In this document: piece after piece, positions 1,125 to 61,484 of the stretch | Layout: every line of letters begins with the position of its first letter | How positions within the stretch are numbered: position 1 is the first letter of the stretch | Assembly (NCBI GenBank): GCA_020696345.1 | Contig: JAEHCK010000011.1 | Span: 213-64,212, forward strand | Length of the DNA: 64,000 nucleotides | DNA from: Thermoplasmata archaeon | GTDB lineage: Archaea; Thermoplasmatota; Penumbrarchaeia; JAEHCK01 | Direction: 5' to 3' | Made by a program: the position numbers and the translations under genes | The notes under the pieces: model-generated | What the model saw: only the letters and a program-made list of their open reading frames with translations | What the model was told of the DNA's origin: nothing | Databases searched by the model: none

Positions 1125-1229
1125 GGTAAATCTCCAAGTTTTGAATTTAGGGGCAGTTAAAAGGGGATTTCAATATAAAAATCTATCGGTAAATTAACTG
1201 GCCATGTCTGTCACTGACCGGTTTCGGTA

Positions 1230-2717: not shown

Positions 2718-2870
2718 ATCGAAACACCATATAAAAAATTGCAGATATTATCTATTGTTCTTACATAACGATTTATTATAACGTATATTGGAATTTCAAC
2801 GCAACCAGTCGATTATATCTGAATTAATAAAAAAATGCGTCAATTATCATTCACTTTACGCAGCATTTTT

Positions 2871-6035: not shown

Positions 6036-6318
6036 CGGGGAATTATTGATTGAATATCGCTGGGGACATTTGAAATTGGAAATTTTAAATTGTAAAATGC
6101 AAAATAACGGTTTTGTTCCGCGGTTTAGTTTGTCGGTGGCGAGATTTCCCCTACCAAAAATTTTATATTTGCTCAAACCTAATGATATCTATTCTCATTT
6201 GCAATTCGAGGCTAATAATATTCTCTGAAACAATGATGAACTTCATTATCAAGAGACTGGGGTAAATCAGTAATTCATTTTAAATTATACCTTATTGTTG
6301 GAAAACGGGTCGGTAATC

Positions 6319-10584: not shown

Positions 10585-10735
10585 TTTAATATGGAAATAA
10601 AAGATCATTCTAAGTGATTTTCAGAAATTCAAGATCTTTATAGGTTTGGGTAGTTTAGATATAGAAGATACTTGTATCATAATAGATATATCCTTACACT
10701 AAAACCGAGATACATTCGATATTTGTCCGAAAAGC

Positions 10736-10745
10736 TTTAAATATA
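10736..10745 (+). promoter_or_regulatory. Putative archaeal TATA box (TTTAAATATA) with a purine-rich BRE-like CGAAAAG upstream
   Basis: About 30 nt upstream of ATG 10774, which would give a very short leader. Pattern only. Confidence 0.3.
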
Positions 10746-10773
10746 CCTATATAGTAATTTAATTAATGATAAG

Positions 10774-22800: not shown

Positions 22801-24736
22801 TGGTACCTGTTACAAATATCTTCCCGTAAGTATCCAGTTTCAAATCGATCCCTGAATCGTCTGAAGTGCCATCTAAGAATGTCGAGCAAACGATCTTTGA
22901 CCCGGATTCATTTAATTTTAAAACAAACACACTAACATCTCCTGAGTTTTTTTGTGTGCAATATGCCCTGGGTGTAGTAGGAAAATCATCAGAATCTGTA
23001 TAGCCTGTTACAACCGCATTACCTTCAAGATCCAATTTTAAACCATAGCCACCGTCATCATTTACACCACCTATAAACGTAGAATAGTTGAGTTTTGAAC
23101 CGTTATGATTGAGTTTTGTAATAAAACAGTCCAATGTACCAAAATTTCCATTAAAGGAAGTATCTTTTGCACCGGGTGTTGTTGGGAAATCAGAAGATGA
23201 TGTAAGACCGGTTATGAATGCTTCACCCTTGGAATTGGTTTCGATATTAATTATATAATCAGCTTGGTTTCCGCGTATATATGTTGAATAATTTAGCTTT
23301 GATCCATTATTATTTAATTTTAAAACAAAACCATCTTGATTAACACTAGAAGAATTATCGAACGCATTTTTGGTGGTGGGGAAATCTAAAGATTGAGTAT
23401 TACCGGTTACATAAGCATCTCCATATGGATCAATAGCAATATCATAGGCATAATCGGAGCCACTACCACCAATATAGGTAGAATAAATGAGTTTTGAGCC
23501 ATTTGGATATAATTTCACACACACAATATCTCTGTTCCCGTTATTGGATGAATTCAATGCATCCTTTGTTACTGGGAAATCAGTTGAATCCGTTCTACCA
23601 GTAACAAATGCTTCTCCGAGTGTATTGACCTCGATCGCATTTCCCCTGTCGTCCAAACTTCCTCCAATGAAGGTTGAAAATATCAGTTGTGAGCCGTTAT
23701 GATTTAATTTTGATACAAAAATATCATTGGTGCCATTCAATATAATGTCTAACGCACCCGTAGTATTCGGGAAATCATGTGATTGGGTGTAACCCGTTAT
23801 GAATGCATTCTCCGAATCATCTACCGCAATGTCAAAACTATATTCATAACCATCCCCACCAACATAAGTCGAATACTCCAACGTTGGATCGATGATCAAT
23901 GTTCTTTGCGGATCAAACTCTCCGATCAGATCAAAACCATATTTATTTTCATTTAATACACAAAATCTACTATCAACCTGCCGCCTTTGACCATTGCTCT
24001 CCTGGTAAACGAATAGGTCTCTATCCACGATATTTTTAATGCCTGTCCGTATCTCCAGGTCACCGAATTCATTAACCTCTATTCCATCCGCACCATCGAC
24101 CTTAACTCTAATTTGGCTTGGATCGGCACCTGGGTGCACGATAAAATCGTATTTCAAGCCGTTGTTATCTGTATAATATCGCAGATCGATGCCGTCATAA
24201 ATGTGCTCGTAATACACCTCACCGTAATTGGGCACACCAGTACACCACCTGGTCGAGTCATTGCCGTAGAAGAAATTGCTGTTCCAGGATAGTCTTTGTC
24301 TGCCTTCGGGGCGGACCAGGTTTGCACCAACGAATTCCTGCTTGATCACAGCTCGACGATATTGAATTGGTTTAAGTTGCTCTTGATAAATCATCGGATC
24401 AGATCTGACTCTCGACTCCAGACTCCTAGACTCTCGACCTTCAATTGGTATCTCTTCTCTGAGCTCAAGCCACATACCATCATCAGTAAACCATACACCG
24501 CCGTCCTTGGAATAGAAGCGGACAGCATTGTTCTCGAGCTGGCCGCGGTTGGGGGTGAAGGTGATCGGTCTTTGCAGTGACGCATCAAATTTATACTGAA
24601 ACCGGTTCTCATTAGATTCACTATTTATTGATCCCTGATCATTTTGAAATACGCTGACCTCGCCGATGATCCCCATAGGATATAAGTTAAGGATAAAAAT
24701 GGATACAATAATAAGACCTATTATTTTCTTAGTCAA
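19811..24736 (-). CDS. Giant surface protein: SBBP-type beta-propeller repeats, Ig/FN3-like and CARDB-like domains, TM, Pro/Gln/His-rich tail
   Basis: Signal anchor (IIGLIIVSIFILNLYP). About nine repeats of the pattern YSTYIGGSGSDYAYDIAIDPYGDAYVTGNTQSLDFPTT. Three repeats of the TYYWTVVP/TYYWKIVP type. TM (AVMIGAAVGVIILIIILCMLYFFYF). Confidence 0.85.
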   Translation of the reverse strand: MTKKIIGLIIVSIFILNLYPMGIIGEVSVFQNDQGSINSESNENRFQYKFDASLQRPITFTPNRGQLENNAVRFYSKDGGVWFTDDGMWLELREEIPIEGRESRSLESRVRSDPMIYQEQLKPIQYRRAVIKQEFVGANLVRPEGRQRLSWNSNFFYGNDSTRWCTGVPNYGEVYYEHIYDGIDLRYYTDNNGLKYDFIVHPGADPSQIRVKVDGADGIEVNEFGDLEIRTGIKNIVDRDLFVYQESNGQRRQVDSRFCVLNENKYGFDLIGEFDPQRTLIIDPTLEYSTYVGGDGYEYSFDIAVDDSENAFITGYTQSHDFPNTTGALDIILNGTNDIFVSKLNHNGSQLIFSTFIGGSLDDRGNAIEVNTLGEAFVTGRTDSTDFPVTKDALNSSNNGNRDIVCVKLYPNGSKLIYSTYIGGSGSDYAYDIAIDPYGDAYVTGNTQSLDFPTTKNAFDNSSSVNQDGFVLKLNNNGSKLNYSTYIRGNQADYIINIETNSKGEAFITGLTSSSDFPTTPGAKDTSFNGNFGTLDCFITKLNHNGSKLNYSTFIGGVNDDGGYGLKLDLEGNAVVTGYTDSDDFPTTPRAYCTQKNSGDVSVFVLKLNESGSKIVCSTFLDGTSDDSGIDLKLDTYGKIFVTGTTGSYDFPVTPDAYAKHIQDDDVFLAQLNSNCSTLLYSTCLGGLDTDTGSGIDIDSKGNVFITGHTSSTDFPTSKGAFNITHNNRTDVFVSKFSFPVGIRIGSLELIKNDVVMNKIYSMLGLYTFRVNITDSISLIDLEFTQLNLDPQGLSIQLRWDRATGQFKKLNDPNNYLTLEQSCIAYNNGRNNWTIDFNVTFNWTYPDENLHDVKVYASSEMLPPAWLNMSNMYRVENDLVFTGNLEVRYEEDLLITGSSIIRGGEKLTFSGLIPAYQSTTDIYPTDSGLKVTIWGDNGRSWFSSPVPGQPIDIEITTPYISDSDGFTYTINLTGIPPYCDATSESFTIKLDSENVTYSNPTPDNTTWHTDTDVAVGIAVLDTGGGFVDASSIEYSTTTDNGSIWNVWQPGATNKDDEASVSANGQVTLKDGRENLVKWQAGDTVGNGPIESEPYRILIDTQYVIFSDNLPSQASESPTETVEVGITISDETSGVDAASVEYAISTDGGGTWEPWLKVHDLVESAGIDVKLNITFANGTENHIKWRAVDIAGNGPTESKIYNIKVNTWLDAQTPKVKLLAPKSGAVIAKKSIELKWELTDMGFTGIRYDILLDTVNPPKKSEKTDHSETTLLKTGLTDGTTYYWTVVPKTGSTNGRCLSGVWSFSVNLSIPVPQVTLQSPLDGVDVNTSKPILKWSVTYAGTEAVTYNIHIWSDDGEESIIESISGNKYSVEKDLENGKTYYWKIVPFAGDIEGPDSATWSFKVVADIVPKFDLAIVLNESVVELHQGEEKIVKATVENLGEANDIVLLTLETTSKTGIDIRISGNASKPVDVDGFAEFSVVIKVGSNTKPGEIQINVSVNSTKAKEYGLEVKRNTTLTIRVLKDKDGSIQESDSNAVMIGAAVGVIILIIILCMLYFFYFRKNGKKDRLYDLPPPDGVPATSEYEFSTPQPARETMEEMPKHPQQENKQQYLHQTPRHISQAPHAQPHYQHKHSKPPDPGR

Positions 24737-27661: not shown

Positions 27662-28396
27662 ATGATAATTATGAATGACTTGACAATTACAAAAATGCTG
27701 GAAGATAGACAAGCTGCAGTATTTACAACGCAACAATTGGCCGTATTGTTCGGGTTGAAACCCAACTCCACTACAGTGAAATTAAACCGTCTTGTAGCAA
27801 GAGGTGTTTTGGTTCGCGTGGTTAGGGGCCGATATACTCTGCCTAGCACAAATATACTTGCCGTTGCTTCCAGCATATATCCGCCATCGTATGTGTCATT
27901 ATTAGCAGCATTTGAATATCATGGCACTACCACTCAATCACCCAGGATGATCGATGTTATAAACAATGTACACACGGGTCGTACAACAATATTGTTGGAG
28001 TCCGGGCTGTTTGAAATACGTTTTATTAAAGTAGCTCCTTATTTGCTCTTTGGCTATGAAAAGAATTTTATTAATAGCATGACCTCTATGATCGCTGAGA
28101 AAGAAAAAACGATAGTCGATAGTTTATTACTCATTGGTTATGTATCATTGGACGAAACAGTGGCGTGCATTCGCAGCCAGGTTAATTATGAAAAAGCAAT
28201 GGAGTATGCCCGACGCACCGGCCGACAGAGCGTGATAAAGAGATTGGGATATCTACTCTCATCTGAAGGAATAGATGTTTTGCCAAAATTTCTAAAGGGT
28301 CTATCGAAAACCTATGTGCCGCTGGACCCCGCACTCTCCAAGCGAGGGAAATATGACCCGAAGTGGCGAATTATTGTTAATAGGGTGATCGAATGA
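27662..28396 (+). CDS. abiEi: AbiEi-family type IV toxin-antitoxin antitoxin (wHTH regulator)
   Basis: N-terminal wHTH (FTTQQLAVLFGLKPNSTTVKLNRLVARGVLVRVVRGRYTL) and an AbiEi-like C-terminal domain. ATGA overlap with the downstream AbiEii gene. Confidence 0.78.
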   Translation: MIIMNDLTITKMLEDRQAAVFTTQQLAVLFGLKPNSTTVKLNRLVARGVLVRVVRGRYTLPSTNILAVASSIYPPSYVSLLAAFEYHGTTTQSPRMIDVINNVHTGRTTILLESGLFEIRFIKVAPYLLFGYEKNFINSMTSMIAEKEKTIVDSLLLIGYVSLDETVACIRSQVNYEKAMEYARRTGRQSVIKRLGYLLSSEGIDVLPKFLKGLSKTYVPLDPALSKRGKYDPKWRIIVNRVIE

Positions 28397-29157
28397 ATCG
28401 TGATGAACTGAAAAGACACATCGGAATAACCGGTTACTCGTTGGGACAAGTGGAAAAAGATTATTTTCAGCATATGATTCTTGGTGCATTATCAAGAAGA
28501 GCTGGTGGAGGGTTGGTGTTCAAGGGAGGCACAGCATTACAAAAACTTGGTATTATACCCCGGTTCAGTGAAGACTTGGACTTCACTGCACGATATGATC
28601 CAAAGATACAAAAGTTAAAAGATTATATTTTAAGGGTTATCCATAATTATAATTTCTTGGCCGAGGCAAACAATTTTATTGACGATGAGAGAACAGCTGG
28701 TTTTCGAATTAAGATACAGGGTCCACTCTTTCGCAACAGACAAGGATTATGTACTATCAGAATAGAGATTAGCAAAAGAGAGTCAGTGATATCAATCCCT
28801 GAAAATAAAGAATTCAATCCACCATATCTTGATATACTGCCATATTCTTTGAATATCATGCATAAGGAAGAAATTCTTGCTGAAAAGATTCGTGCAATTT
28901 ATTCTAGGCATAAGGCACGAGACCTTTATGATATTTACAAACTCTTAGAGATAGGAACAATTTACAATATCGATCTAGCTAATGAAAAATTGGATTATTA
29001 CAATCTTCAATTCGATACTGGATCATTCATAGAAAATTGTGAGAAATTAAAACCAGATTGGGAGCGGGACCTACAAAGCTTAATGCAAAATATCGTACCA
29101 TATAATAATGTCTTGAATGTTATTAAGGAAAGACTTTTGAAAGATCAGAAACTATAA
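28393..29157 (+). CDS. abiEii: AbiEii/AbiGii-family nucleotidyltransferase toxin (DUF1814-like)
   Basis: Motifs EKDYFQHMILGAL, LVFKGGTALQKL and RFSEDLDF are typical of this family. 254 aa. Confidence 0.82.
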   Translation: MNRDELKRHIGITGYSLGQVEKDYFQHMILGALSRRAGGGLVFKGGTALQKLGIIPRFSEDLDFTARYDPKIQKLKDYILRVIHNYNFLAEANNFIDDERTAGFRIKIQGPLFRNRQGLCTIRIEISKRESVISIPENKEFNPPYLDILPYSLNIMHKEEILAEKIRAIYSRHKARDLYDIYKLLEIGTIYNIDLANEKLDYYNLQFDTGSFIENCEKLKPDWERDLQSLMQNIVPYNNVLNVIKERLLKDQKL

Positions 29158-35750: not shown

Positions 35751-36320
35751 CTACAATCTGATATCCGGGTGGACGAATTCAACATTAACCTCGCCTTTTC
35801 GCATGCCCTCGGAAAATGCGGTAATGGTGGGGGTTAAAGTTTCCTTAACAGATCGAAGTTCGGTCTTGGCCACACCGCCCCTGCATTTCACGATACGATC
35901 GGAAAGCACACCACCGGTGGTTAAAAAATGGATCTCGTTCTTGGCGTTCGTGATCAGGCTGCCATCCTCGTCTCGGATGCTGGCAGTTATTGTAACCGTT
36001 GATTTGCCGTCGGCGCGCATCTCGGGGATGCCATCGCCGTCATGGTCGGGTGCGTCAATGGCAAGATCGATATATGGCAATGTGGACCTTCTAACAAGTT
36101 CTTTGGGCACGCCACTGCTGCTGAACTTCAGTTCGTACTTGTAGATCTCATTAGCCACGATCTCGTCGTCCGGGACGATGAACTCCATTACGTTGGGGTC
36201 CAACCGTCCGGTTGTTGATCTATTATTAATATACTGGGTTGGCGCCAACCCGGTCGTATCCTGTGAGATCATTGATATACCTATGATCTCTCGGTTCTTT
36301 CTATCATATATGACAATCAT
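35751..36320 (-). CDS. Cytoplasmic-type protein ending in a Big_1 (invasin/intimin-like) Ig domain
   Basis: ADGKSTVTITASIRDEDGSLITNAKNEIHFLTTGGVLS...GGVAKTELRS. No signal peptide or TM. Confidence 0.55.
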   Translation of the reverse strand: MIVIYDRKNREIIGISMISQDTTGLAPTQYINNRSTTGRLDPNVMEFIVPDDEIVANEIYKYELKFSSSGVPKELVRRSTLPYIDLAIDAPDHDGDGIPEMRADGKSTVTITASIRDEDGSLITNAKNEIHFLTTGGVLSDRIVKCRGGVAKTELRSVKETLTPTITAFSEGMRKGEVNVEFVHPDIRL

Positions 36321-36340
36321 ACCAAAACCTCAAACATGGT

Positions 36341-36823
36341 CTATTGTAAAACACCAAAAGCTATCCAATTCACGACGCCTTTATCCTTACCATCATCGGA
36401 TAGTGCATGAATTTTGAAACCATTTTCCGTGATCTCATAGGGATAGCATCGAATGGCTTTTTTCGATTCGTCAGCGCTGTTTAATGTGCCGCTTAGTGAA
36501 ATTAATACATGGGGTTTCACACCCCAATTCAATTGGATGTATGTCTCATGGCTGGACACACCGGAAGCGATCAGGATCTGTGATTTGGATACAAAATTAT
36601 TGATCGTTGCCGCGATGTTGTTAAGGTCATCTTTGATCTCTGTTTGTAGATCATTCCAGTCGTCGGCCATGATCAGGTCGCCTGGTCCCTTTTTACGCGG
36701 GTTGAAAGTTGTATTGATCACCGCACTTTTGTCAACTTTTTCCAGGTCCCACTCGGTCTCATCATCTTTTGGCTCTGATATCGCCTTAACCTCTGACCCT
36801 GCTATTATTTTGGGTTTTGCCAT
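36341..36823 (-). CDS. Protein with a C-terminal H-type-lectin-like domain
   Basis: The C-terminal ~80 aa (YIQLNWGVKPHVLISLSG...YEITENGFKIHALSDDGKDKGVVNWIAFG) fit the H_lectin pattern as I remember it. No signal peptide. Confidence 0.5.
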   Translation of the reverse strand: MAKPKIIAGSEVKAISEPKDDETEWDLEKVDKSAVINTTFNPRKKGPGDLIMADDWNDLQTEIKDDLNNIAATINNFVSKSQILIASGVSSHETYIQLNWGVKPHVLISLSGTLNSADESKKAIRCYPYEITENGFKIHALSDDGKDKGVVNWIAFGVLQ

Positions 36824-36856
36824 TTTATCATCCTTTTTGTTTGATTGAATATTGAT

Positions 36857-37642
36857 CTAAAATGAAATTTTCCAAATCAAAGATAATGTAAACTTATCGG
36901 TTTTAGTGATCTCCGGAAATACCACACGATTATACATGACTCCGCCATCTTCGGAATTGAAAATTCCAGCTTCGGTCAAGATGCCATTTGCATCCTCATA
37001 ACCAAAGGTAGATGACAGTGTTACCACAATATCCGAGCCGCCTGAGAGTTTTGTGGGGTTAAGCTGCCTGGGAAGTGCTTCTTCAAGAACAGAGGCAGAA
37101 ACCAGTTCTGAGCCATTATTGAGTTTTGCGATCAAATAATCATCGGACTCGGGGTCCATCACCAGATCCTCGAAGGTCTCTGTAATGCCCTCGGCTTCAT
37201 TTGTTAGAATGAAATTTGCCACAGTCCTCTTGCCTCGGCCACGCCCGCTCACATCAATGGCTTTGATCTCCAAGATCGTGTTATTTCCACACTCTCCACT
37301 AAGTTTTGAAGTGAGTTTAATAACATCTTTATTTTTTTTATCTTTTAGGATAATAGATGCGTTCTTTTCTTCCTGGATATTGTTTTGATCGAACACTTTT
37401 CGTGGCGGGTTCTCCTCTACGAGGTTATCGTCGGCGGGTGATGGTTTTGTCGAACCTGTGCCAACACCGATATGGCTCACACCCTGTTTCTCGGCGCCCC
37501 GAAAGATATTGGCAAGTAATATTTTACCACTTGATGTGATCAGATTTTGGTATTTTTGTTTTTTTACTATTTTTCCCGCTTCATCACGTAGGATTATCTC
37601 AACCGAACCTTTTATTGAATTATGATCACATTGTATGTTCAT
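36857..37642 (-). CDS. Virus-structural-like protein (tail-fibre-module beta-sandwich with a sheath-like insert)
   Basis: Termini NLITSSGKILLANIF..HIGVGTGSTKPSPADDNLVEE and ILTEAGIFNSEDGGVMYNRVVFPEITK. Central ITETFEDLVMDPESDDYLIAKLNNGSELVSASV resembles a tail-sheath N-terminal motif. Recognition from memory only. Confidence 0.5.
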   Translation of the reverse strand: MNIQCDHNSIKGSVEIILRDEAGKIVKKQKYQNLITSSGKILLANIFRGAEKQGVSHIGVGTGSTKPSPADDNLVEENPPRKVFDQNNIQEEKNASIILKDKKNKDVIKLTSKLSGECGNNTILEIKAIDVSGRGRGKRTVANFILTNEAEGITETFEDLVMDPESDDYLIAKLNNGSELVSASVLEEALPRQLNPTKLSGGSDIVVTLSSTFGYEDANGILTEAGIFNSEDGGVMYNRVVFPEITKTDKFTLSLIWKISF

Positions 37643-38093
37643 CCCAAGATCCCCCAGACCTGTTTCCTGTAATGGAAATGTTTGGTAATAGACATGGATT
37701 GATAATAAGATGTTGTTTCATGTAAAGTTGTGAAAGGGTTATTGTAATAAGTAATAATAAAGATTTTCTTAACCGGGTAAGAGTTCTAGGGCGGCTTCCC
37801 ATAAAGCAATAAATATTTATAGCAATAGAACAATAGAGGTGCGGAAAACTACAGAACAGATGACCTTCTATACACCCTAAACTTTTTAAAAAGCACTATC
37901 AACCCCCCCTATTGGTGTATCGAAGTTGGTGAAGAGAGGATTGGAAAATAAGGATGTTCGATGATTTATTGGTTCTACTTCAAAAAAAAGATCTAAAAAC
38001 GCCCACACTTTTTTTTATATAAATCATCACATCCTTTTTTCCTGCATTTTTGCGTTTTGATTGGATAGAATAATAATTTTAGATCAATGAGAT

Positions 38094-38326
38094 GGTCGAC
38101 TGTTAGACCGAGTGACAGGGGTCTGGGGCCGGAAACAGTTGCTAGATGTTAGTTGCTAGTTGCCAGTTTAATAATATCACACTAGAAACTAGAAGCTAGC
38201 AACTGATAACTAACGGGGTCGGGGTGAGAACAAGGTACGAGTTTAACGGGAAGAATCAATAAATAAGCACACTGGCAACCGACAACTGATTACTGACAAC
38301 TAGTATGGACGGTAGACCATCTAACA
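38094..38326. repeat. MITE-like mosaic element (GTTGCTAG/CTAGCAAC words), long copy
   Basis: Shares GGTCGAC..GGAAACAGTTGCTAGATGYTAGTTGC..CAGTTTAATA..ATCACACTAGAAACTAGAA and CTGACAACTAGTATGGMCGGTRGAC with 61371-61484. Carries about 110 extra internal nt. Outer 10-bp pair CAGTTGCTAG/CTAGCAACTG. Confidence 0.7.
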
Positions 38327-38350
38327 ATTAACTCCTACTTTTGACTGGGT

Positions 38351-38607
38351 AAGAATTCTGAATTAATTGTAATGCATTTTTAAGAATTCTTAGTTCCAGA
38401 CAATTTTTTATGAAAAATTGTTGAGGTTTAAAATTTGACTTATCAATTTGCTCTAGCAAATTTTTCTAAAGGTATAAATTCCGAATCTAATTACATAATT
38501 ATAGAAAGAATTTATAGCTCGAGACCATTTTCGTAAGAAAATTGTCGAAGCTTTGAAAAACTAAAAAGTTTTTCAATGTAGAATAATTTTTCTCTAGAAA
38601 ATTGTTC
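38351..38607. repeat. Train of seven short AT-rich hairpins (7-9 bp stems)
   Basis: AAGAATTC/GAATTCTT 38351-38391; CAATTTTT/AAAAATTG 38401-38420; AATTTGC/GCAAATT 38445-38462; TATAAATTC/GAATTTATA 38473-38516; GACCATTTT/AAAATTGTC 38523-38546; TTGAAAAAC/GTTTTTCAA 38553-38576; GAATAATTTTC/GAAAATTGTTC 38581-38607. Confidence 0.7.
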
Positions 38608-38690
38608 CAATATCCCAAGCAACGATCAAGCACATTTTACCAACAACTTAATTACCCCCTTTATTATTTATACACTTGAAGGTGAAAATC

Positions 38691-41600
38691 ATGAGGCTCA
38701 TGAGACGGGGCGTCCTGGTATTATTCTGTTCGATTTTCCTGATCTTGGTATCCTTGACTTATCCATTGATCAAATTTGACATCACTGCGGATTCGAAAGT
38801 TCAGACATTCCATGATGGGACAGATGAAAAAATTGTGAGTGTCCCGGATTTTGATACGAGTTTCTATATTGAGGTCCCGACAACTGCAGATGCACTTGAA
38901 GCAACCATGAACGTGTCGTTTGTGGATTTTGACGGGCTTTACCCGATCAATCCTATATTGCGAATGGGTACATCTATCGACCCGGTCTGGATGAAGCCGC
39001 TTTGGGAATACAAGAATACAGGGTATGGTGCACTGGGGCATCAATACAGCTTCACCAGTGGTGCAATTGAAGATGAGCTCGTGTACGATGAGGCCACGAA
39101 GGAGGATGAGGTTACGATATTTTTACCCGCCTCGGCTCATGTACGCTCGGCAAAGATAAATCTCACTGGCATAGAATATGACTGCTGGTCGAAAGATGTA
39201 TTGGAGTTAAATGTCGAGCCGGACGGTACCGGTGACTATGAACCGGATATGACCGTTTTCAATGACCAACTGTTCACGGTCTATCGCAGCTATAATGATG
39301 TGGTTACAAATGCAAGTGACGCAGATATTGTCATAACAAATTCCACAGATGGGTTCAACTGGAGCTCCGGATATGAGATCACATCCAGACCGGATAGCAT
39401 ACCGCCGTATAATTATTCATTGACTTCGGCCGATTGGCGGCCGGTGCTGGAACAATTCAAAAACAGGTTATACTGTGCCTGGGAAAGCAACGGCACCTCC
39501 ACTTCAGGCCCCGACCATGATATCCTTCTACGCTCATCGGCAAACGGCATCACCTGGAGCGAACCCATCGTCAATGTGAGCGACCTTTGGGAAGATACAT
39601 ATTCAGTCAATCCGGGGATCAAGAATGATTGGACGGCGGATATGGCAGTTTTCAAGAATAAACTGTGGCTGGTCTGGGTCAGTAATAATACGGGTTCCAA
39701 TAGCGGTTTTTCCACATCTATCGGAGATATAATGATCACCAATAGCTCGGACGGCATTACCTGGGGTGTGCCCAAAGACCTGGTCAAGGGTGATAATTGG
39801 TACACCAATGATCTATCACCGAAACTTACTGTGTTCAATAACAGTTTATATGCGGTCTGGGTGTCGAATACGACCAAATTAGCGCATAATGATGAACTGG
39901 ACTTTGATATAGTATACCGAAACACCACCGATGGTGTAAACTGGAGCGCGTTAAAGACACTAAATCCCAATGATAATGATTACCTGTTTGGCAAGGGTAG
40001 TGTTGACCATCAGCCCGTGTTGTTGAGCCATGATAACAAGTTGTACTGTGCCTGGATGTCTGCAGCTACTCAATACACTTCTGGGGTGGACTTTGATATA
40101 GTTCTTGGGTATACCTCCAATGGTACTTTTGACTCGGAAAATATAACTCACATGGAAGTGTCGGACGAGAAAAATAATTATTACGAACATTCACCACAAC
40201 TAACAGTTTTCGAAGATCGACTGTACATAATATGGGTGAGCGAGGTTGCGGGCAATACGGGCAATAGCGAGATTTTGGTGCGGTATTTAGATCTCGATCT
40301 TGACCTTAACCCAGCCAACAACCACCTTAGCATGATCCAGCAGGTCAACCCACCCGATAACGGCGGCAAAGATTATTGGCCGAAAGTTAGCGTGTTCAAA
40401 AACAAATTATTCGCAACCTGGGTTTCAAATGACACTAAAACAGGTACGGGCAAGGATAAGGATATCATACTTACTCATCTAACCACATCGCATCTACCTT
40501 TAAAGATCGGTTTGGATGTGGGTGGTGACGGTACCTGGGATATTGCGAAAGCTACTCAATTAGATGAGCAAATTACAGAGTTCGACCTGACTTCGTACTT
40601 CAATAATGTACTCACCAACAATACATGGCAAGATAACAATTCAAAAACAACTTCGTACGGTTTTACAATGAGCGAGATACCCTTGAATGTCCAATTTTCG
40701 GGCCCGGGGAAAATTCTTGCCCAGGACTTGCATATTTATTATAATTGTACATTTCAGGTCAAGGATTTCAGTAAAAAATTAAATGAATATATTACATCAC
40801 ATCCGGGTGAGGCCACGAGTAATAACACGATCAAGATCCCGTTTACACTAACGGTTCCGGTCAGCACAAAAGGGAAGATCAAGGTCTCGGACGTGTCGGT
40901 GATCTTTGATCACAAGCCAAGTATAAATATTATCGAGCCGCCTGAAGATGGGTTGACCATTTCCGAGCCAGTGTTTAGAATTCAATGGTCGGACTTCGAT
41001 CCGGACGATAACGCAAAAATTTCACTGTATTATGATACTGACGCCCATGGTTTCGATGGCAAGGTCATTGCTACCAATTTAAGCGAGGACGGCGACTTGG
41101 ATGAGAATTATTTTGATTGGGCCTGGTGGAACACTGAAGAACTTCGAGCCGGTGGAACCTATCATATCTACGCCAATATAACCGATGGAAGGAACTATTA
41201 CCTTAATTACAGTGAGGGGCCGCTCAAGATCCCACTGATCAATATAACCAATTTTATCGATCTTCAACTCGTGGAACCAGACGGAGTTGACGATGACGCG
41301 TGGGATGCCGTTGTGATACAATGGGCGAGTTATAACTATTGGCCCGACCAGACCGCTAATATCGCACTGTATTATGACACCGATGATAATGGCTTCGACG
41401 GATTGCCTATCGATATCAACAACGACAGTAAAGTCGATGACCAGGATCTAATAAATATGACGGGTGAGCATGGTCAAGGCACGATCATATGGAACATATC
41501 AGGACTACCTCAGGGAAGCTCGGTTTTCATCTACGGCAAGATCACCGATCACTGGAATATTTCATATTCTAACTACAGTTCAGGTCCGATCACGCGCCTT

Positions 41601-42662
41601 CATATGCCAGCACCGAAAGGGTTTGTTCTCGTGGACGATCTGGACCCACTCGACAATAATTTTACCACCCATGACCAAAACCCGTCGTTCACATGGCTGC
41701 CGCCCATGGCCAACCCGCCCGATGACATGGAATATGTCTTTAAGGTCTGTGAAGGATCAGATAACTCCGGTGAAAAAGTGTTTGAGGACACCGTATTGAC
41801 CACCGAGGTTTCGGTTGATAAACCACTGGAATTTCATCAAATATATTATGCCGAGGTATTCGCACAATTGGCTGATGGCAATGCCTCTATGAAAGCGGGT
41901 CTTACCTTTGAATTGACCAACCATGCCCCAGAGGCGCCAGTTATAGCAATTACTCCAGGATCGCCAAAAACCACATCAATACTGAATTGTACGGTCCTAA
42001 ATGAGAGTTTCGATCATGAGAATGATCGTATCGAATATTCATACCTATGGTTCAAGAACGGTCACGCACAAGTAGACTATACAAATTTAACCGAGATCAC
42101 GTCGGACGCCACCACAAAAGGCGAACGCTGGCGGTGTACTGTGTTACCCAATGATGGTATAGACCAAGGGATCGGCGGAAGTATTGAAGTATTGATAGGT
42201 AACAGCCCGCCCACCATCAAGATCGACGTACCAGTATCCGGTAAAGAGTACCAGGACAATGAGGTTATTAATATCAAATTTACGATCCATGACCCGGATG
42301 CGGGTGATATCGAGCATATTCAATACATAGTATATGCAAACGAGCTGAAACATAAGATAAGAACGGGATATGTGGATTCCAACAACGGTATTGTAGAATT
42401 TGCCACTTACCTGGCTGAGGGCACACATAATTTGACATTCAACATATCCGATGGTGAGACCAGTATCGAGGTATATCTGGAAGTGAAAGTTTCAGGCCAC
42501 CAGACCGAAGATCTTAACAACCTGATGTTACAGCTCATCTATGGGATCGTGATCATAGTGGTCATCTTACTAATTTTCTTTCTGGCACTACTGACACGGG
42601 TGCGGAATATGAAGAAAGAAGATAAAGCGGAAGATAAAGCAGAAGTTGATGAAGAGGAATAA
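38691..42662 (+). CDS. Giant surface protein with a BNR/Asp-box (sialidase-like) beta-propeller, Ig-like domains, TM and acidic tail
   Basis: GGTGA lies 6 nt before ATG 38691 (the ORF track starts at TTG 38676). Asp-boxes ITNSTDGFNWSS, SSANGITWSE, ITNSSDGITWGV, NTTDGVNWSA. TM (IYGIVIIVVILLIFFLALL). Tail KKEDKAEDKAEVDEEE. Confidence 0.85.
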   Translation: MRLMRRGVLVLFCSIFLILVSLTYPLIKFDITADSKVQTFHDGTDEKIVSVPDFDTSFYIEVPTTADALEATMNVSFVDFDGLYPINPILRMGTSIDPVWMKPLWEYKNTGYGALGHQYSFTSGAIEDELVYDEATKEDEVTIFLPASAHVRSAKINLTGIEYDCWSKDVLELNVEPDGTGDYEPDMTVFNDQLFTVYRSYNDVVTNASDADIVITNSTDGFNWSSGYEITSRPDSIPPYNYSLTSADWRPVLEQFKNRLYCAWESNGTSTSGPDHDILLRSSANGITWSEPIVNVSDLWEDTYSVNPGIKNDWTADMAVFKNKLWLVWVSNNTGSNSGFSTSIGDIMITNSSDGITWGVPKDLVKGDNWYTNDLSPKLTVFNNSLYAVWVSNTTKLAHNDELDFDIVYRNTTDGVNWSALKTLNPNDNDYLFGKGSVDHQPVLLSHDNKLYCAWMSAATQYTSGVDFDIVLGYTSNGTFDSENITHMEVSDEKNNYYEHSPQLTVFEDRLYIIWVSEVAGNTGNSEILVRYLDLDLDLNPANNHLSMIQQVNPPDNGGKDYWPKVSVFKNKLFATWVSNDTKTGTGKDKDIILTHLTTSHLPLKIGLDVGGDGTWDIAKATQLDEQITEFDLTSYFNNVLTNNTWQDNNSKTTSYGFTMSEIPLNVQFSGPGKILAQDLHIYYNCTFQVKDFSKKLNEYITSHPGEATSNNTIKIPFTLTVPVSTKGKIKVSDVSVIFDHKPSINIIEPPEDGLTISEPVFRIQWSDFDPDDNAKISLYYDTDAHGFDGKVIATNLSEDGDLDENYFDWAWWNTEELRAGGTYHIYANITDGRNYYLNYSEGPLKIPLINITNFIDLQLVEPDGVDDDAWDAVVIQWASYNYWPDQTANIALYYDTDDNGFDGLPIDINNDSKVDDQDLINMTGEHGQGTIIWNISGLPQGSSVFIYGKITDHWNISYSNYSSGPITRLHMPAPKGFVLVDDLDPLDNNFTTHDQNPSFTWLPPMANPPDDMEYVFKVCEGSDNSGEKVFEDTVLTTEVSVDKPLEFHQIYYAEVFAQLADGNASMKAGLTFELTNHAPEAPVIAITPGSPKTTSILNCTVLNESFDHENDRIEYSYLWFKNGHAQVDYTNLTEITSDATTKGERWRCTVLPNDGIDQGIGGSIEVLIGNSPPTIKIDVPVSGKEYQDNEVINIKFTIHDPDAGDIEHIQYIVYANELKHKIRTGYVDSNNGIVEFATYLAEGTHNLTFNISDGETSIEVYLEVKVSGHQTEDLNNLMLQLIYGIVIIVVILLIFFLALLTRVRNMKKEDKAEDKAEVDEEE

Positions 42663-42715
42663 TTAGTTTGTGAGTGTGGGAGTGTAAGTGTGTGGGAGTT
42701 ATTATCAGGGATTTA

Positions 42716-42780
42716 GGGTCGGAAACAGTTGCTAGATGTTAGTTGCTAGTACTACTTTGTTAGTTGAAAAATTTAATGAA
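42716..42780. repeat. Partial GTTGCTAG module followed by the conserved 30-mer ACTACTTTGTTAGTTGAAAAATTTAATGAA
   Basis: 42716-42750 matches 38126-38160. The 30-mer recurs at 47256-47285 and, reverse-complemented, at 18071-18100. Confidence 0.8.
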
Positions 42781-42974
42781 CTATTTGGGTTTGGGATTTT
42801 CTTGAGGCATTGGTAGTAGAATAAAATGGTTTAGGTAATTCAAATTTGAAGTTTAGAATTTGTTTAGAGATTCGAAATTCGAATTTTACGTTATCTAAAT
42901 AATAAATAAACATATTCTTAGCAGTTCGGAAATAGCCATGTCCAACATTTTTTCACTACGATTACAAGGATAAA

Positions 42975-43118
42975 ATGATGGTAAAAGGAGAAATTGGAAG
43001 ATCAATAAAAAAGGGAAACTTCGAAATATTTGTTAAACTGATCCCTAGTTATTCATACTCCATTGACGAAGAGGTATGGGTTTTAAAGCACATTGGTAAA
43101 AGGAGGTTAAAGAAATGA
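42975..43118 (+). CDS. Hypothetical 47-aa protein (below the ORF-track cutoff)
   Basis: ATG ORF MMVKGEIGRSIKKGNFEIFVKLIPSYSYSIDEEVWVLKHIGKRRLKK. Its stop overlaps (ATGA) the start of 43115..43414. Nothing beyond the open frame supports it. Confidence 0.25.
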   Translation: MMVKGEIGRSIKKGNFEIFVKLIPSYSYSIDEEVWVLKHIGKRRLKK

Positions 43119-43414
43119 ATAGAAAAAAACTTGAATCTGGAGATATTAAATGCCCGGATTGTGGAAAAAAATGCAGATCCACAGAAATAGCAGCCGCTGG
43201 AGCTAAAGTTAAAGGTTGGAGATGTAATTGTAGCTACGAACTAATAAGCCCTTATGAAATCGAAAAAGCCTATTTACTAATGCTAGCCAAAAAGCACGAA
43301 AAGGTAAAAATTTCCAAGAGAGGTAATTCTTACATGATCACAATTCCAAAAGCTATCGCTAATGCTATTAATATTGAAAAAATAAAGGCTGCGGAGGTTT
43401 TTCTGAATGGATGA
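43115..43414 (+). CDS. Zinc-ribbon plus AbrB/SpoVT-like DNA-binding protein
   Basis: CPDCGKKC...WRCNC, then VKISKRGNSYMITIPKAIANAINI (swapped-hairpin AbrB/MazE-like motif). AGGAGG lies 8 nt before the ATG. Confidence 0.6.
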   Translation: MNRKKLESGDIKCPDCGKKCRSTEIAAAGAKVKGWRCNCSYELISPYEIEKAYLLMLAKKHEKVKISKRGNSYMITIPKAIANAINIEKIKAAEVFLNG

Positions 43415-43586
43415 ACATACGATCTCGGTTATCGTCTAAAGTATATTCATCCCATGTTCGTTCTTTCATTCGTTGCTTGTGCGCATTAAGCGACTAATAG
43501 TAGGTGTCTGCAGGGGGTAAAAAAAAAGGAAAAATATTTATGTATATAGACGATAACTAATCATTCATGTTTTTGGGGGTAGTGGT

Positions 43587-46500
43587 TTGAAAAAGAGATT
43601 AATACATAAATTGATCACTTTTAGTTTCATTATATTTATAATTATTTCAAATGCTCAATTTTTTGTTTCAACAAATAATAATAGATATGAGTTCAATGAA
43701 AATTTGGAATTATTCAAATCCGAACAGAGATCCGCTAATTTTAATAACAAATTCCAAGAATCAAGTGGATCAAGATATTCACCATATCAAACAAAATATA
43801 TTGAAGACAACTTTTTCAACGAGTCAAAAATTGATTTTAAGGAAAACGTACTTATTGATACTTCATTAGGTGAGATAACGATATTAGAACCAATGATACC
43901 TTTTAATAAGACATATTATAAAGACGGAGGTGGAACAGGTCGGTCGATCCAGCAAACATCCGATGGTGGATATATCATTGCAAGCACATCAAATGATGCC
44001 ATTTTAACCAAAATAGATAAAAACGGCAATCTATCGTGGCGAAAAAGCTTTGGGGGGTATGACACAGATATTGGATATTTTGCAGCTGAAACAACAGATA
44101 AAGGTTTTATTTTATTCGGATCGACGTATTCCTATGGAGCGGGTAGTTCTGATGGATTATTAATTAAGACCGATAAACTTGGCAATCTAATTTGGGAATC
44201 CACATTTGGGGGTATTAGCGTTGATCTAATACGCACAGGTCAACAAACCTCGGATGGAGGTTATATTGCTGTTGGTATAAGTAAAGTTGAAGATAGTGCA
44301 CCACAGAATTTATGGTTAGTTAAAACTGATGATATGGGTAACGTGGAATGGAATAAAAGGTATGGTGGACAATATACAGATGAGGGATATTGGGTACAAC
44401 AGACGTCGGATGAGGGGTACATCATTACTGGTTCAACCATATCTTATGCAACTGGATCTGGTCGTACCTGGTTAATAAAAACGGATGATTCAGGAAATGA
44501 AGAATGGAATACAAGCTTTGAAGGATATCAAGGTGATGTTGGACATTATGTTCAAGAAACCTCAGAAGGTGGATATATAATCACAGGTACAAATAAAAGC
44601 ATCTACCATGGAACAGGGAAAAGTGACGTAGCTCTTATTAAAACTAATAGCACAGGTGTTGTCGAATGGCGAAGCATTTTTGAAAGCATAACTGATGATT
44701 CAGGGCATACAGTCCATCAGACCTCAGATAATGGATATATTATTGGTGGTGGCATCGATGGTGATAAGTATCATTACATGTGTTTAATAAAAACAAATGA
44801 AACTGGCCATGTAATGTGGGATAAGAAATTTTATGGTAAAGAAGAATATTATCCAACATTTGCCCAACCAACCAAGGATGATGGATATATAATTGTTGGT
44901 ACAACAAAAATCTACGGAGATGGCGGAAGTGATACTTGGGTAATCAAAACAGATAGCACAGGAAATATGTATCCAATTAGCTTTATGAATGGTACTATAA
45001 TTTCACGAAATTTGCTAGAAAATGATAGTGCAAATTCAATAAACTTCTTTAATTGTACAGCATCAATTTACCCAGATACAAATATTGATGTTCAATTTTC
45101 GCAAGATAATATTACTTGGTATAATTCTTTAGGCATTTTAGATGACTTTGATCGATTGGGTGATAGATTAAATAATATCGATCTAAAATCTCTAGATTGG
45201 AGTGGAAATGAATTCTATTACAAATTGAACTTTTCAACTCATGATGTTGACTATATTCCAAATATCCTAAATATAAACATATCATTTACGATAAATATTG
45301 ATTTACCAGCTTATACAAAAGATAAACCAGATCTTAGCATTGATAAAAGAGATATTAGAACGAGTTCTAATTATCAGAAGAGCATACTAGTCTATGATTC
45401 GATAGTTTTTAGAATTATAATCCATAATATTGGAAATGCTTCAGCTAACAATATAAAAGTCAAATTATGGGAAGGACATCCTGAGTCTGAAGATAGAAAG
45501 ATCATATCAACGTGGGATCATGATGAGTTACACCCAAACAAAGAAGTTGAACTATCAAGAACCCCGGGCTATCAATTTGATACCATTGGAGAACACTATA
45601 TTTATGCCGTAATTGATCCAGATAATTTAATTCTTGAAATGGATGAAGATAATAATATTGCTTTTAGAATAATAAATGTAACCCCAAGATTACCTGAACT
45701 TTTTATTCTGGAGGATATTAGAGATCAAGAAATAAAACCGTGGGTTTTTCGCAATGGTAAAAATGTCCAGACAGGAATATTACTTGATGGGGAAAAATAT
45801 TGGTTTAATTTCAATATTTCAAATATGGGACCTCGTCATGCTTTAAATTTTAATGTCTCAATATACCTAGATCATCTATTGAATGAATTGGATAAAATTT
45901 TTATTGAAGAAATATACGCTGAAAAACGTGAGTATAGTATTACTACAAAATCAATAATCGCTGATTTCTCTATTGAGTCAGATAATAATCATAAAATAAT
46001 AATTGTTATTGATCCAGATTATACTATTAAAGAACTAAACAAAGAAAATAACATATTAGAAATCCCACAGTGCTTTACAATTATACATCCAAAAGATGAT
46101 CCAGACCTTGATGGATGCGTGAATGAATGGGAGATATATTTAGAAACAGATCCGTTTAATAAAAGTTCGAAACCACTAGATACCGATAATGATGGAAAAC
46201 CAAATGGTGATGAAAATAATTCTCAACCTTGGATGGACTATGATGATGATAATGATAATTATAACGATGAAGATGAAAAAAATTCCAATACAGATCCATT
46301 AGATGATAATGATCATCCATCCAAACAAACTGATAAAAGTACTTTTATTGAAGAGAATCTTATTATAGTAATTTTCATACTTATTCTTATTTTTACAATC
46401 ATAATAATAATTTTAGTAAGGGGCAAATCAAAAACAATAGAACTAAAAGAAACAAAACTAAAAAAAATAAAACCAATAGAAATAGAACCAATAGAAATAG

Positions 46501-46796
46501 AACAATCATATAGTGAAAATATGACACCCCAACCACTTGAGCAACAAACCAATTATCAAACAAACGTCCTCTCCAGTCAAAAACATATAGGATATTTTCT
46601 AATTACATTGGGTTTATTAGTAGCTATTGTAGTTCCAATCGCAATAATTGTCCGTGGAGGAGTGGGAGAAACTAGGGGATTTACTTTATGTATGGCAGTC
46701 TTAGCTCCTTATGTATTGATAATTCATGGTTATCGGATTGTATCTGCTAAATGGCCGGTTAATACCTGGAGTTGGAATTTGGAACGAAAAACCTAA
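43587..46796 (+). CDS. Large surface protein: about 8 beta-propeller-like repeats, CARDB-like domains, TSP3-like acidic stalk, TM, and a cytoplasmic segment with two further TMs
   Basis: Repeats of the QTSDGGYII.G.T.S.G.G..D.WLIKTD..GN..W pattern. DLSIDKRDI...HNIGNASANNIKV (CARDB-like). QPWMDYDDDNDN. TM LIIVIFILILIFTIIIIILV. Strongly AT-rich codons. TTG start. Confidence 0.78.
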   Translation: MKKRLIHKLITFSFIIFIIISNAQFFVSTNNNRYEFNENLELFKSEQRSANFNNKFQESSGSRYSPYQTKYIEDNFFNESKIDFKENVLIDTSLGEITILEPMIPFNKTYYKDGGGTGRSIQQTSDGGYIIASTSNDAILTKIDKNGNLSWRKSFGGYDTDIGYFAAETTDKGFILFGSTYSYGAGSSDGLLIKTDKLGNLIWESTFGGISVDLIRTGQQTSDGGYIAVGISKVEDSAPQNLWLVKTDDMGNVEWNKRYGGQYTDEGYWVQQTSDEGYIITGSTISYATGSGRTWLIKTDDSGNEEWNTSFEGYQGDVGHYVQETSEGGYIITGTNKSIYHGTGKSDVALIKTNSTGVVEWRSIFESITDDSGHTVHQTSDNGYIIGGGIDGDKYHYMCLIKTNETGHVMWDKKFYGKEEYYPTFAQPTKDDGYIIVGTTKIYGDGGSDTWVIKTDSTGNMYPISFMNGTIISRNLLENDSANSINFFNCTASIYPDTNIDVQFSQDNITWYNSLGILDDFDRLGDRLNNIDLKSLDWSGNEFYYKLNFSTHDVDYIPNILNINISFTINIDLPAYTKDKPDLSIDKRDIRTSSNYQKSILVYDSIVFRIIIHNIGNASANNIKVKLWEGHPESEDRKIISTWDHDELHPNKEVELSRTPGYQFDTIGEHYIYAVIDPDNLILEMDEDNNIAFRIINVTPRLPELFILEDIRDQEIKPWVFRNGKNVQTGILLDGEKYWFNFNISNMGPRHALNFNVSIYLDHLLNELDKIFIEEIYAEKREYSITTKSIIADFSIESDNNHKIIIVIDPDYTIKELNKENNILEIPQCFTIIHPKDDPDLDGCVNEWEIYLETDPFNKSSKPLDTDNDGKPNGDENNSQPWMDYDDDNDNYNDEDEKNSNTDPLDDNDHPSKQTDKSTFIEENLIIVIFILILIFTIIIIILVRGKSKTIELKETKLKKIKPIEIEPIEIEQSYSENMTPQPLEQQTNYQTNVLSSQKHIGYFLITLGLLVAIVVPIAIIVRGGVGETRGFTLCMAVLAPYVLIIHGYRIVSAKWPVNTWSWNLERKT

Positions 46797-47222: not shown

Positions 47223-47375
47223 ACAGTTGCTAGGTTCTAGTTGCTAGTTGCTAGTACTACTTTGTTAGCTGAAGAATTTAATGAATAATAGACGGTCGAC
47301 CAGTCAGCTGGTCGATCTGTCAGCTAGTCACCCAGTTGACCGGTATACTGTTAGACCAGTAAACGAGCAGACCGG
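47223..47375. repeat. Mosaic intergenic repeat: GTTGCTAG words, conserved 30-mer, GACCAG/CTGGTC words
   Basis: 47223-47285 parallels 42724-42780. 47256-47375 parallels the reverse complement of 17961-18100. Confidence 0.8.
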
Positions 47376-49103: not shown

Positions 49104-49144
49104 CTAACGATCATTTTTTTATTAATTAATTTGAGGTGACTGAC

Positions 49145-61370: not shown

Positions 61371-61484
61371 GGTCGACTTGTCGGAAACAGTTGCTAGATG
61401 CTAGTTGCCAGTTGCCAGTTTAATATAATCACACTAGAAACTAGAAACTAGAAACTGACAACTAGTATGGCCGGTGGACTATCT
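61371..61484. repeat. MITE-like mosaic element (GTTGCTAG/CTAGCAAC words), short copy
   Basis: Collinear with both ends of 38094-38326 (see that entry). Confidence 0.7.

Follow-up and report, generated by a model that had tools for sequence, protein, structure and literature searches.

The window analysed here, a 64,000-nucleotide stretch of contig JAEHCK010000011.1 from a Thermoplasmata archaeon, carries on its minus strand three closely spaced open reading frames (ORFs), which we term the trio and whose products we relate below to the receptor-binding end of contractile tails. The intergenic gaps of 33 nt (ORF1/ORF2) and 20 nt (ORF2/ORF3), reported by a first-pass annotation made from the DNA letters alone, are seen in the ORF listing. 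Shine-Dalgarno-like sites precede all three ORFs (GGGGGAT for ORF1, AGGATGAT for ORF2 and GAGGT for ORF3), and an AT-rich short hairpin lies 3' of ORF3. The genes and the regions that were delineated within their products are as follows:

36857-37642, minus strand: ORF1, 261 amino acids (aa)
aa ~10-95 and ~205-261 of ORF1, minus strand: split core with a tail-fibre N-terminal/baseplate-arm fold (profiles, Foldseek)
37031-37357, minus strand: ORF1 insert, aa ~96-204, homologous to the repeated surface domain of contractile sheaths (Foldseek, BLASTP)
36341-36823, minus strand: ORF2, 160 aa
36632-36706, minus strand: ORF2 anchor motif (FNPRKKGPGDLIMADDWNDLQTEIK), aa 40-64
36347-36580, minus strand: ORF2 H-type-lectin-like knob, aa 82-159 (Foldseek against the PDB)
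35751-36320, minus strand: ORF3, 189 aa
35766-36041, minus strand: ORF3 invasin-type Big_1 immunoglobulin (Ig) domain, aa 94-185 (Invasin_D3, 1cwv profile match)

The window is otherwise ordinary archaeal chromosome, with genes for Alba, Nop5, TrkAH, pyruvate:ferredoxin oxidoreductase, adenylate kinase, HVO_0163-type helix-turn-helix (HTH) proteins and giant surface proteins. Pfam scans of its 30 other ORFs recovered no capsid, portal, terminase, tube, sheath, baseplate or integrase, and tblastn searches of the window with gp25, Baseplate_J, wedge, tube and sheath queries had the ORF1 insert as their sole match, upholding the earlier remark that no capsid, portal, terminase, tube, baseplate or integrase gene is nearby. 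We also confirmed that the trio lacks signal peptides and transmembrane segments: the maximum Kyte-Doolittle hydropathy over 19-residue windows is only 0.52-0.86 for ORF1-ORF3, far under what is required, and hence no transmembrane segment or signal-peptide core is present in any of the three; a lipobox was likewise not found in them.

Domain composition of the three proteins

Profile searches placed ORF1 in phrog_5417, a PHROG of unknown function, with a match that covers the whole profile (positions 11-156 of 156, E 1.6e-19). Because these 156 positions stretch over ORF1 residues 11-261, the protein must carry an insert of about 100 aa that splits the core. The N-terminus was additionally recovered by phrog_4176, annotated as 'tail fiber' (E 8e-6), and PF12571 (Phage_tail_fib) matched residues 29-97 only, with 14.6 bits (E 0.034), which is under its 23-bit gathering cut-off. 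An AlphaFold model of ORF1 was obtained with a predicted local distance difference test (pLDDT) value of 83.9. In Foldseek searches of the PDB its core aligned with A511 gp105 and the phi812 arm segment, at E-values of 0.04-0.5 and without sequence similarity, and in BFVD the model matched Caudovirales proteins of ~150 aa with target-normalised template modelling scores (TM-scores) of 0.66-0.73, further matches being the N-termini of tail fibres and tail-collar fibres, proteins of the haloarchaeal tailed viruses HHTV-1 and HGTV-1, and tail sheaths. The two PHROG matches and the structural likeness to fibre N-termini bear out the first-pass impression that the termini of ORF1 are tail-fibre-like. 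Structures of TssK or of the phage-p2-type shoulder were absent among the top 50 Foldseek matches of ORF1 in the PDB, and only fold comparison was informative at this range, as family profiles of ORF1 and ORF2 returned nothing below E 0.8 against PDB sequences. An NCBIfam scan gave nothing meaningful for the trio proteins. An exhaustive hidden Markov model search gathered 4,089 representatives of the ORF1 core family, nearly all of them 145-170 aa in size, with the long forms making up only about six clusters at 50% identity.

The insert of ORF1, which is about 100-110 aa in size and is missing from the short forms in the alignment, was modelled with a pLDDT of 92-97 except for one loop. It is through this insert that the ORF1 model finds its top matches in the PDB, namely the sheaths of the H. 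borinquense contractile injection system (CIS; 9ezm, E 1.5e-4), P1 and Lin1278 (3lml). A BLASTP comparison further aligned aa ~77-214 of ORF1 with two sheaths at 30-33% identity, namely P0235 (E 2e-11) and P0172 (E 3e-9), both of which carry three or four tandem copies of the insert-type domain. P0235 is recognised by the Pfam models Phage_sheath_1/1C, a match of P0172 is the PA0622 pyocin sheath, and the 9ezm CIS sheath was recovered with either protein. The exhaustive profile search also drew in some large proteins that match the ORF1 family through the insert alone. The resemblance between the ORF1 insert and sheaths is true sequence homology, and the sheath-like middle that had been claimed for ORF1 is seen in both the fold and the sequence comparisons. 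We considered ORF1 itself as a sheath and rejected this, given that only the surface domain is in common, the sheath core is missing and no Phage_sheath Pfam match was obtained. The most divergent long-form ORF1 is preceded by a wedge-like gene (L084, positions 1-1461), in which a stretch similar to the sheath/ORF1-insert motif (VRFRARTPGVWGNGL) was noticed by eye only; if this resemblance is real, the insert-type domain may have moved into several baseplate proteins.

In the model of ORF2, residues 1-52 are disordered, with a Lys-rich N-terminal extension, and are followed by a helix (53-77) and a beta domain (82-159, pLDDT 82-93). The gene immediately 3' of an ORF1-like gene begins with the anchor motif in 59 of 68 loci. 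This motif follows the pattern [GAS]D.[ILVM].[AS].[DEHN][WFY]N, and may also be written GD-x-I-x-[SA]-x-DWN or PGD-[LI]-I-x-[SA]-x-DWN. Motif-bearing downstream genes encode proteins of 158-170 aa in archaea and 162-1026 aa in bacteria, the bacterial ones being bona fide fibres of variable sequence with Peptidase_S74/G2, Collar and Gp10_C domains. The classic layout of tail fibres joins a conserved anchor to a receptor-binding end that varies, and ORF2 represents a minimal version of it. Foldseek searches of the PDB with the knob recovered SLL-2 (3wmp, E 1.5e-3), HPA (2ccv) and discoidin as the best fits, with E-values of 1.5e-3 to 0.1 and probabilities of 0.97-1.0; the target-normalised TM-scores were 0.46-0.54 against the ~100-residue lectins and 0.21-0.25 against the 250-residue discoidins. 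The knob also matched the tailspike tips of phages phi297, AP22 and LKA1 and the tips of R-pyocin fibres, and its identity to H-type lectins and fibre knobs is 11-17%. The H-type-lectin-like end attributed to ORF2 at first pass is supported at the level of the modelled fold; no Pfam model, H_lectin included, matched ORF2 at E up to 1, which leaves it outside that family, and phrog_1910 ('lectin') reached E 0.18 only.

ORF3 is a member of the Invasin_D3 family by its score (E 4e-8, 34.1 bits against a cut-off of 33), and a profile of its relatives matched the PDB structure of invasin, 1cwv, with E 3e-6. Its Big_1-like end had been noted previously and is supported by these matches, with Big_1 itself scoring 23.5 bits, below its cut-off of 34.9. 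The N-terminal ~90 aa of ORF3 gave no match and no known fold. Full-length homologs of ORF3 were found downstream of ORF1-like genes in Bacteroidota, Cyanobacteria and Kutzneria.

Conservation of the trio and its relatives

Homologs of the three proteins formed 46 (ORF1), 36 (ORF2) and 33 (ORF3) clusters, and the 36 for ORF2 always lie between ORF1 and ORF3. Among the loci that we compared (designated with L numbers), the gene order and similar sizes are kept wherever the contig is long enough (L001-L013, L065-L067, L069-L074 and L076), and the trio proteins are 45-100% identical across more than 20 loci of Thermoplasmatota-type archaea, whose record titles read Thermoplasmata, Thermoplasmatota or 'uncultured archaeon'. 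Co-conservation of the three genes as a unit, which the first-pass annotation had proposed to examine, is thus strict, and the structural and profile comparisons it had also proposed did find similarities to viral tail, sheath and lectin folds. The flanks of the trio are syntenic within clades and different between clades; for example, L002, L065 and L066 have genes for a 707-aa protein, a Toprim protein and a Mg-chelatase in common, and L006 and L067 have common upstream genes. The GC content of the loci ranges from 0.35 to 0.56, and together with the flank synteny this points to a long chromosomal residence of the trio rather than a recent insertion. In the one set of pairs that is unsaturated, the ratio of nonsynonymous to synonymous substitution rates (dN/dS) is 0.06-0.10 for all three genes; in other pairs the proportion of synonymous differences (pS) exceeds 0.7, which is saturated, with nonsynonymous values (pN) of 0.07-0.39, and every ORF is intact. 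The trio is under strong purifying selection, and the sequence comparisons indicate that it is detached, vertically inherited and functional.

No CIS or prophage gene set was present within up to 10 kb of the trio in L002, L004, L006, L065-L067 and L074, and in the window we found no sheath, tube, spike, gp25, Baseplate_J, capsid, portal or terminase that would make the trio part of a CIS or prophage locus. A scan of IMG/VR with the ORF1 alignment gave three bacterial-type short forms and no archaeal long form, and hence no evidence of the trio on a known virus. A complete archaeal-type trio with 59-71% identity (P0028, P0068 and P0103) was observed on a 21.5-kb NCBI contig labelled [Eubacterium] cellulosolvens; contamination of a bacterial assembly with archaeal DNA, or mis-binning of such DNA, is the probable cause.

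In species-representative genomes, short forms of ORF1 were detected in Bacteroidota, Cyanobacteria, Chloroflexota, Burkholderiales/Accumulibacter, Kutzneria, Pyxidicoccus and others. A common gene order was seen in Kutzneria, in a genome of the Lewinellaceae and on an IMG/VR contig: gpV spike, gp25/sheath initiator, Baseplate_J, wedge, ORF1-like gene and fibre. The bacterial wedge gene encodes 420-530 aa, and an ORF3-like gene closes several bacterial baseplate operons. No Tail_P2_I Pfam match was obtained for the wedge genes of these relatives at E up to 0.1. One IMG/VR contig, L063, has the gene for an RHS-repeat protein of 803 aa (1002-3413) embedded in its string of tail/baseplate genes, where it is flanked by a coiled-coil (tape-measure-like) gene and that of the gpV spike; the product may be a toxin cargo, which would suggest that the 'viral' contig is a CIS.

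A scan with an alignment of the long forms found L075, L077 and L078, at 36-41% identity, and scans of JGI metagenomes and IMG/VR yielded no longer contigs of the P0044 lineage. L075, L079 and L081 (also L077) contain a six-gene cluster that consists of gp25, Baseplate_J, wedge, long ORF1, an ORF2 of the lectin type that lacks the N-terminal extension, and ORF3. A wedge-like gene also lies directly upstream of long-form ORF1 in L068 and L084, so that adjacency of the ORF1 family to a wedge gene is found in bacteria and in L068, L075, L077, L079 and L084. ORF1 of the window and of 23 stand-alone loci does not directly follow a wedge gene, and the fibre-like ORF2 does come next to it. Two loci in particular define these intermediate arrangements:

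L079 6944-11671, on a 23-kb contig: six-gene 'baseplate periphery only' cluster
L082 10001-12813, in CP070739.1, a complete 3.2-Mb genome: sheath and tube-like mini-operon

The L079 cluster is bordered by DnaK, GrpE, HSP20 and PdxS genes on one side and by VIT1 and an S8 protease on the other, and there is no spike, tube or sheath within ~7 kb upstream or 6 kb downstream, where the contig ends. L077 has downstream genes in common with the L079-type locus at a very different GC content, which argues that the six-gene form is chromosomal too. The 691-aa sheath of L082, with several tandem insert-like domains, is the closest sheath to the ORF1 insert; downstream of it come a tube-like gene of 130 aa and a gene of 90 aa, and its neighbours are POR and acyl-CoA dehydrogenase genes and an archaeal-type gene for a protein combining NosD with HTH_HVO_0163, which resembles the HTH-fusion proteins of the window. 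The tail genes of this genome appear to be dispersed. Taken together, these loci show a reduction series from the full bacterial tail or CIS baseplate operon, through the six-gene wedge-plus-fibre cluster, to the trio alone, and they demonstrate that the tail genes of such archaea can lie apart from one another in the genome. No role is known for gp25, J and wedge outside a sheath-tube machine, and therefore the genomes with the six-gene cluster probably hold the remaining tail genes elsewhere.

The upstream region and surroundings of the trio

The gap upstream of the trio (37643-38675) had been described as a 1-kb gene-free region. Indeed, none of its ORFs exceeds 58 aa, but conserved promoter/leader blocks and a repeat element are present there. 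The comparison of the region corresponding to 37643-37990 of the window in 8 loci revealed the following elements:

37806-37828, minus strand: promoter-like block, a TATAAATA box between direct TTATTGCT repeats, located 165-186 nt before the start of ORF1
37736-37755, minus strand: second non-coding block (ATTACTTATTACAATAACCC) within the presumed 5' leader, 20 nt, kept in the 8 loci and unique in the window
37649-37655, minus strand: Shine-Dalgarno-like GGGGGAT of ORF1

The block with the TATA box and the TTATTGCT repeats is near-invariant across the 8 aligned loci, in which synonymous sites are saturated. It occurs once in the window and, among 83 loci, only upstream of trios. The marine clade has a conserved TATA block of its own. 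In the Shine-Dalgarno site of ORF1 the bases GGGGGA are invariant, and the seventh is T in 7 of the 8 aligned loci and C in L008. A riboswitch or other structured leader was considered and set aside: at a permissive threshold Rfam gave only chance matches of miRNA models to the leader, and RNAalifold on 7 leaders predicted 13 pairs, in which compensatory changes were lacking and the covariation term was ~0. Given this lack of an Rfam match and of covariation, the conserved blocks are read as promoter or protein-binding DNA, and their invariance would imply a dedicated, conserved regulator of the trio.

The repeat element in the gap is one copy of a type found elsewhere in the window. Intergenic, heptad-like CTAGTTG(C) arrays in inverted orientation occupy 38136-38303, 47237-47254 and 61401-61465, and the sequence CTAGTTGCCAG, allowing up to 1 mismatch, has 7 matches in the window against 0.47 expected. 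This element may be a regulatory repeat or one resembling miniature inverted-repeat transposable elements. An 80-aa ORF was also seen ~560 nt upstream of the trio at other loci (L002 9197-9439, L065 9166-9408 and L008 5299-5535); it has no Pfam match, is absent from the window, and is 95-100% identical between loci whose trio proteins are 73-82% identical.

Giant predicted surface proteins of 1069-1641 aa are clustered at 6295-14655, 19811-24736 and 38676-46796 of the window, with NosD/beta-helix, fn3, SBBP beta-propeller, DUF7948 and CARDB domains; the one directly upstream of the gap (1328 aa) has a signal-anchor and a C-terminal transmembrane segment. Two unusual fusions of large extracellular-type regions with transcription-factor domains were noted, namely a 1301-aa protein (49136-53041) with C-terminal HVO_0163-type and MarR/ArsR-type winged-helix DNA-binding domains, and a 323-aa TSP3-repeat protein (54774-55745) with the same HTH pair. 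A pair comprising an AbiEi antitoxin and an AbiEii nucleotidyltransferase toxin (type IV toxin-antitoxin/abortive infection) lies at 27662-29157, ~7 kb from the trio. An ABC ATPase found in the window and in L002, L065 and L008 (43-46% identity) was considered as a conserved partner of the trio and rejected, since its orientation and position differ; a further ground is that the copy in the window is part of a MacB/FtsX transporter.

Interpretation and comparison with known systems

The foregoing observations are best explained by regarding the trio as the distal, target-recognising part of a contractile-tail baseplate of the CIS or myovirus type, which in a Thermoplasmatota-type clade has turned into an operon of its own, inherited vertically and driven from a dedicated promoter. 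Among the three explanations offered at first pass, that of a receptor-binding module domesticated from a CIS or tailed virus fits best. The target that a phage tail or injection system attacks is determined by its tail fibres. The reading that we favour, while granting it slightly less than an even chance, is that the trio still mounts on a tail-like particle whose gp25/J/wedge, hub, tube and sheath genes are unlinked to it, and that it would set the target specificity of this particle. Under this reading, the three proteins would be made in the cytoplasm without export signals, like tail parts in general. ORF1 oligomers would act as the adaptor between wedge and fibre, with the core docking on the wedge protein and the sheath-type insert forming a surface domain added to the adaptor. 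ORF2 would trimerise through its helix, its disordered N-terminus would plug into ORF1, and its lectin-like knob is predicted to bind a glycan on the target surface, with ORF3 supplying an Ig-type adhesion or bracing element. The genes of the particle would be dispersed, as in systems resembling gene transfer agents (GTAs) or the type VI secretion system (T6SS), and this is favoured by the isolation of gp25/J/wedge in L079 and of the sheath-tube pair in L082. If the genes of the machine are dispersed in this way, the trio, called an orphan at first pass, may not truly be one.

However, several points weigh against a link to such a particle. Sheath, tube, hub, gp25, J and wedge genes are absent from the 64-kb window and from the surroundings of the 23 stand-alone trio loci, which were covered to at most 10 kb, and in the literature searched we found no report of a CIS in Thermoplasmatota. 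The likeness of ORF2 to H-type lectins is at the fold level only and the E-values are modest. Typical receptor-binding tips evolve fast, whereas the rate of the ORF2 knob is about as low as that of the other parts of the module. Stand-alone ORF2s have an N-terminal extension of ~35 aa, Lys-rich, that is absent from wedge-linked ORF2s, which hints at a changed partner. Finally, the known archaeal CISs are compact clusters (PMC11566945).

Several of these points are shared by a second explanation, which we regard as possible but doubtful: the trio could be an autonomous exaptation that forms a free or membrane-associated lectin fibre complex for the archaeon's own uses, with no tail machine, acting, for example, in adhesion or aggregation once set free through vesicles or lysis, or in an intracellular glycan-binding role. 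The lack of tail genes near any stand-alone trio and of a reported Thermoplasmatota CIS, the extension gained by stand-alone ORF2s and the slow evolution of all three genes, knob included, would all agree with this, as would the reduction series and the strongly conserved promoter region that the trio has for itself. But ORF1 still retains the residues that are common to it and its wedge-linked relatives, the absence of tail genes holds for local neighbourhoods only, and a surface role for proteins without export signal, transmembrane segment or lipobox would need a further release route. In a related proposal, to which we give similarly tentative standing, the trio and the six-gene form would together represent a sheath-less, tube-less 'baseplate-periphery' complex of abundant sediment and marine Thermoplasmatota, involved in glycan recognition or cell-cell contact. 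If true, such a sheath-less autonomous complex would be the first archaeal case of a contractile tail pared down step by step to the part that binds the receptor, and its release or display would proceed independently of a signal peptide.

We consider it improbable that the trio is directed at viruses, its proteins entering the tails of infecting or resident tailed viruses and either poisoning their assembly or adsorption, as a defence or superinfection exclusion device, or serving as an alternative host-range cassette borrowed by a virus or satellite. The ORF1 core fold is found in HHTV-1, HGTV-1 and many Caudovirales, the proteins are cytoplasmic like viral assembly intermediates, and the AbiE pair is not far away, all of which could be accommodated by such a role. 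Yet PADLOC gave no match for ORF1, ORF2 or ORF3 at E up to 1, the flanks are unlike a defence island, no long-form relative was found in IMG/VR, and the long vertical inheritance and slow evolution are unlike those of arms-race genes. That the trio is a decaying provirus or CIS remnant without present function, as had also been suggested, would explain its isolation from every other tail gene, but this is highly improbable and effectively refuted by the three intact ORFs at every locus, the low dN/dS, the identity kept over so wide a range of GC content, and the conserved promoter and Shine-Dalgarno sites. Some other explanation accounts for the rest of the probability.

What is new here is a fibre end that has been detached and long retained vertically in an archaeal clade, the division of anchor, fibre and Ig protein into three small genes, and the sheath-domain insert within an adaptor, along with a visible series of reduction. 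That fibre genes are fixed, conserved and under separate regulation in the chromosomes of a widespread archaeal clade leaves two options: either these archaea run a scattered-gene CIS that has been overlooked by cluster-based surveys, or they have turned a viral receptor-binding module to cellular use as a lectin device. Either outcome would extend the knowledge of archaeal cell-cell and cell-virus interactions. The reduction series and the transfer of a sheath domain into an adaptor are clear cases of tail-module rearrangement, and the trio is predicted to be a compact three-protein glycan-binding scaffold that is open to testing and engineering.

Among known systems, the trio is reminiscent of extracellular contractile injection systems (eCISs) of the eBAP3 type. 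The eBAP3/eBAP5 anchors lie downstream of a Tail_P2_I-like wedge and occur with SLL2-like lectin and Ig modules, 'attachment-only' modules exist, eBAP5 carries an inserted domain, and Kutzneria, Accumulibacter and Azohydromonas are listed as eBAP3-type (Nachmias et al. 2026, PMC12923769). These same three taxa hold short ORF1 relatives, and the eBAP3 anchor, right after Baseplate_J/gp25 and wedge, together with its lectin and Ig modules, recalls the gene content and order described here. Compared by published description, the trio differs in having anchor, fibre and Ig protein as three small genes and in the sheath type of its insert; moreover, the window has no eCIS locus and thus no anchor position downstream of a Tail_P2_I-type wedge within one, and the wedges of the relatives lack a Tail_P2_I match. 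The docking proposed for ORF1 may be compared with AlgoCIS, where the N-terminal domain of the fibre binds a C-terminal loop of the wedge protein (PMC13314943).

Like the N-terminal domain of tail-collar fibres (PF12571; PHROG 4176 and 5417; P2/Mu-type), ORF1 has a baseplate-proximal fold of ~150 aa, but it is a protein of its own rather than the start of a long fibre, is interrupted by an insert of ~110 aa and scores below the PF12571 cut-off. A511 gp105 and the phi812 arm proteins have been equated with T4 gp8 and are peripheral baseplate parts that bear receptor-binding proteins (PMC13433997). The likeness of A511 gp105, the phi812 arm segment gp118 and T4 gp8 to the ORF1 core is at the fold level and weak, and the A511 and phi812 proteins are dimers on an arm scaffold in large baseplates of Gram-positive myophages, in contrast to the trio locus, which has no scaffold gene. 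The ORF2 knob is predicted to be a small beta-sandwich like those of H-type lectins (Helix pomatia agglutinin, coral SLL-2 and the discoidin C-domain) and of tailspike and R-pyocin knobs, and it follows a helix as in trimeric lectins and fibre tips; unlike the H-type lectins, it has no Pfam H_lectin match, its identity to them is low and the likeness comes from a fold model.

That archaea do run contractile injection systems is clear from H. borinquense, whose T6SS-like CIS is encoded in one compact cluster of 14 structural genes on a plasmid (PMC11566945). The sheath of this system is the best fold match of the ORF1 insert, whereas the trio corresponds to the fibre end only and its host is of a different phylum. 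The GTAs are siphovirus-like DNA-packaging particles in bacteria, unlike the case of the trio, in which no head or packaging genes are implicated. In the Rhodobacter GTA, the fibre and spike genes lie away from the main cluster, which provides a precedent for fibre genes of a domesticated particle residing at a separate, host-controlled chromosomal locus.

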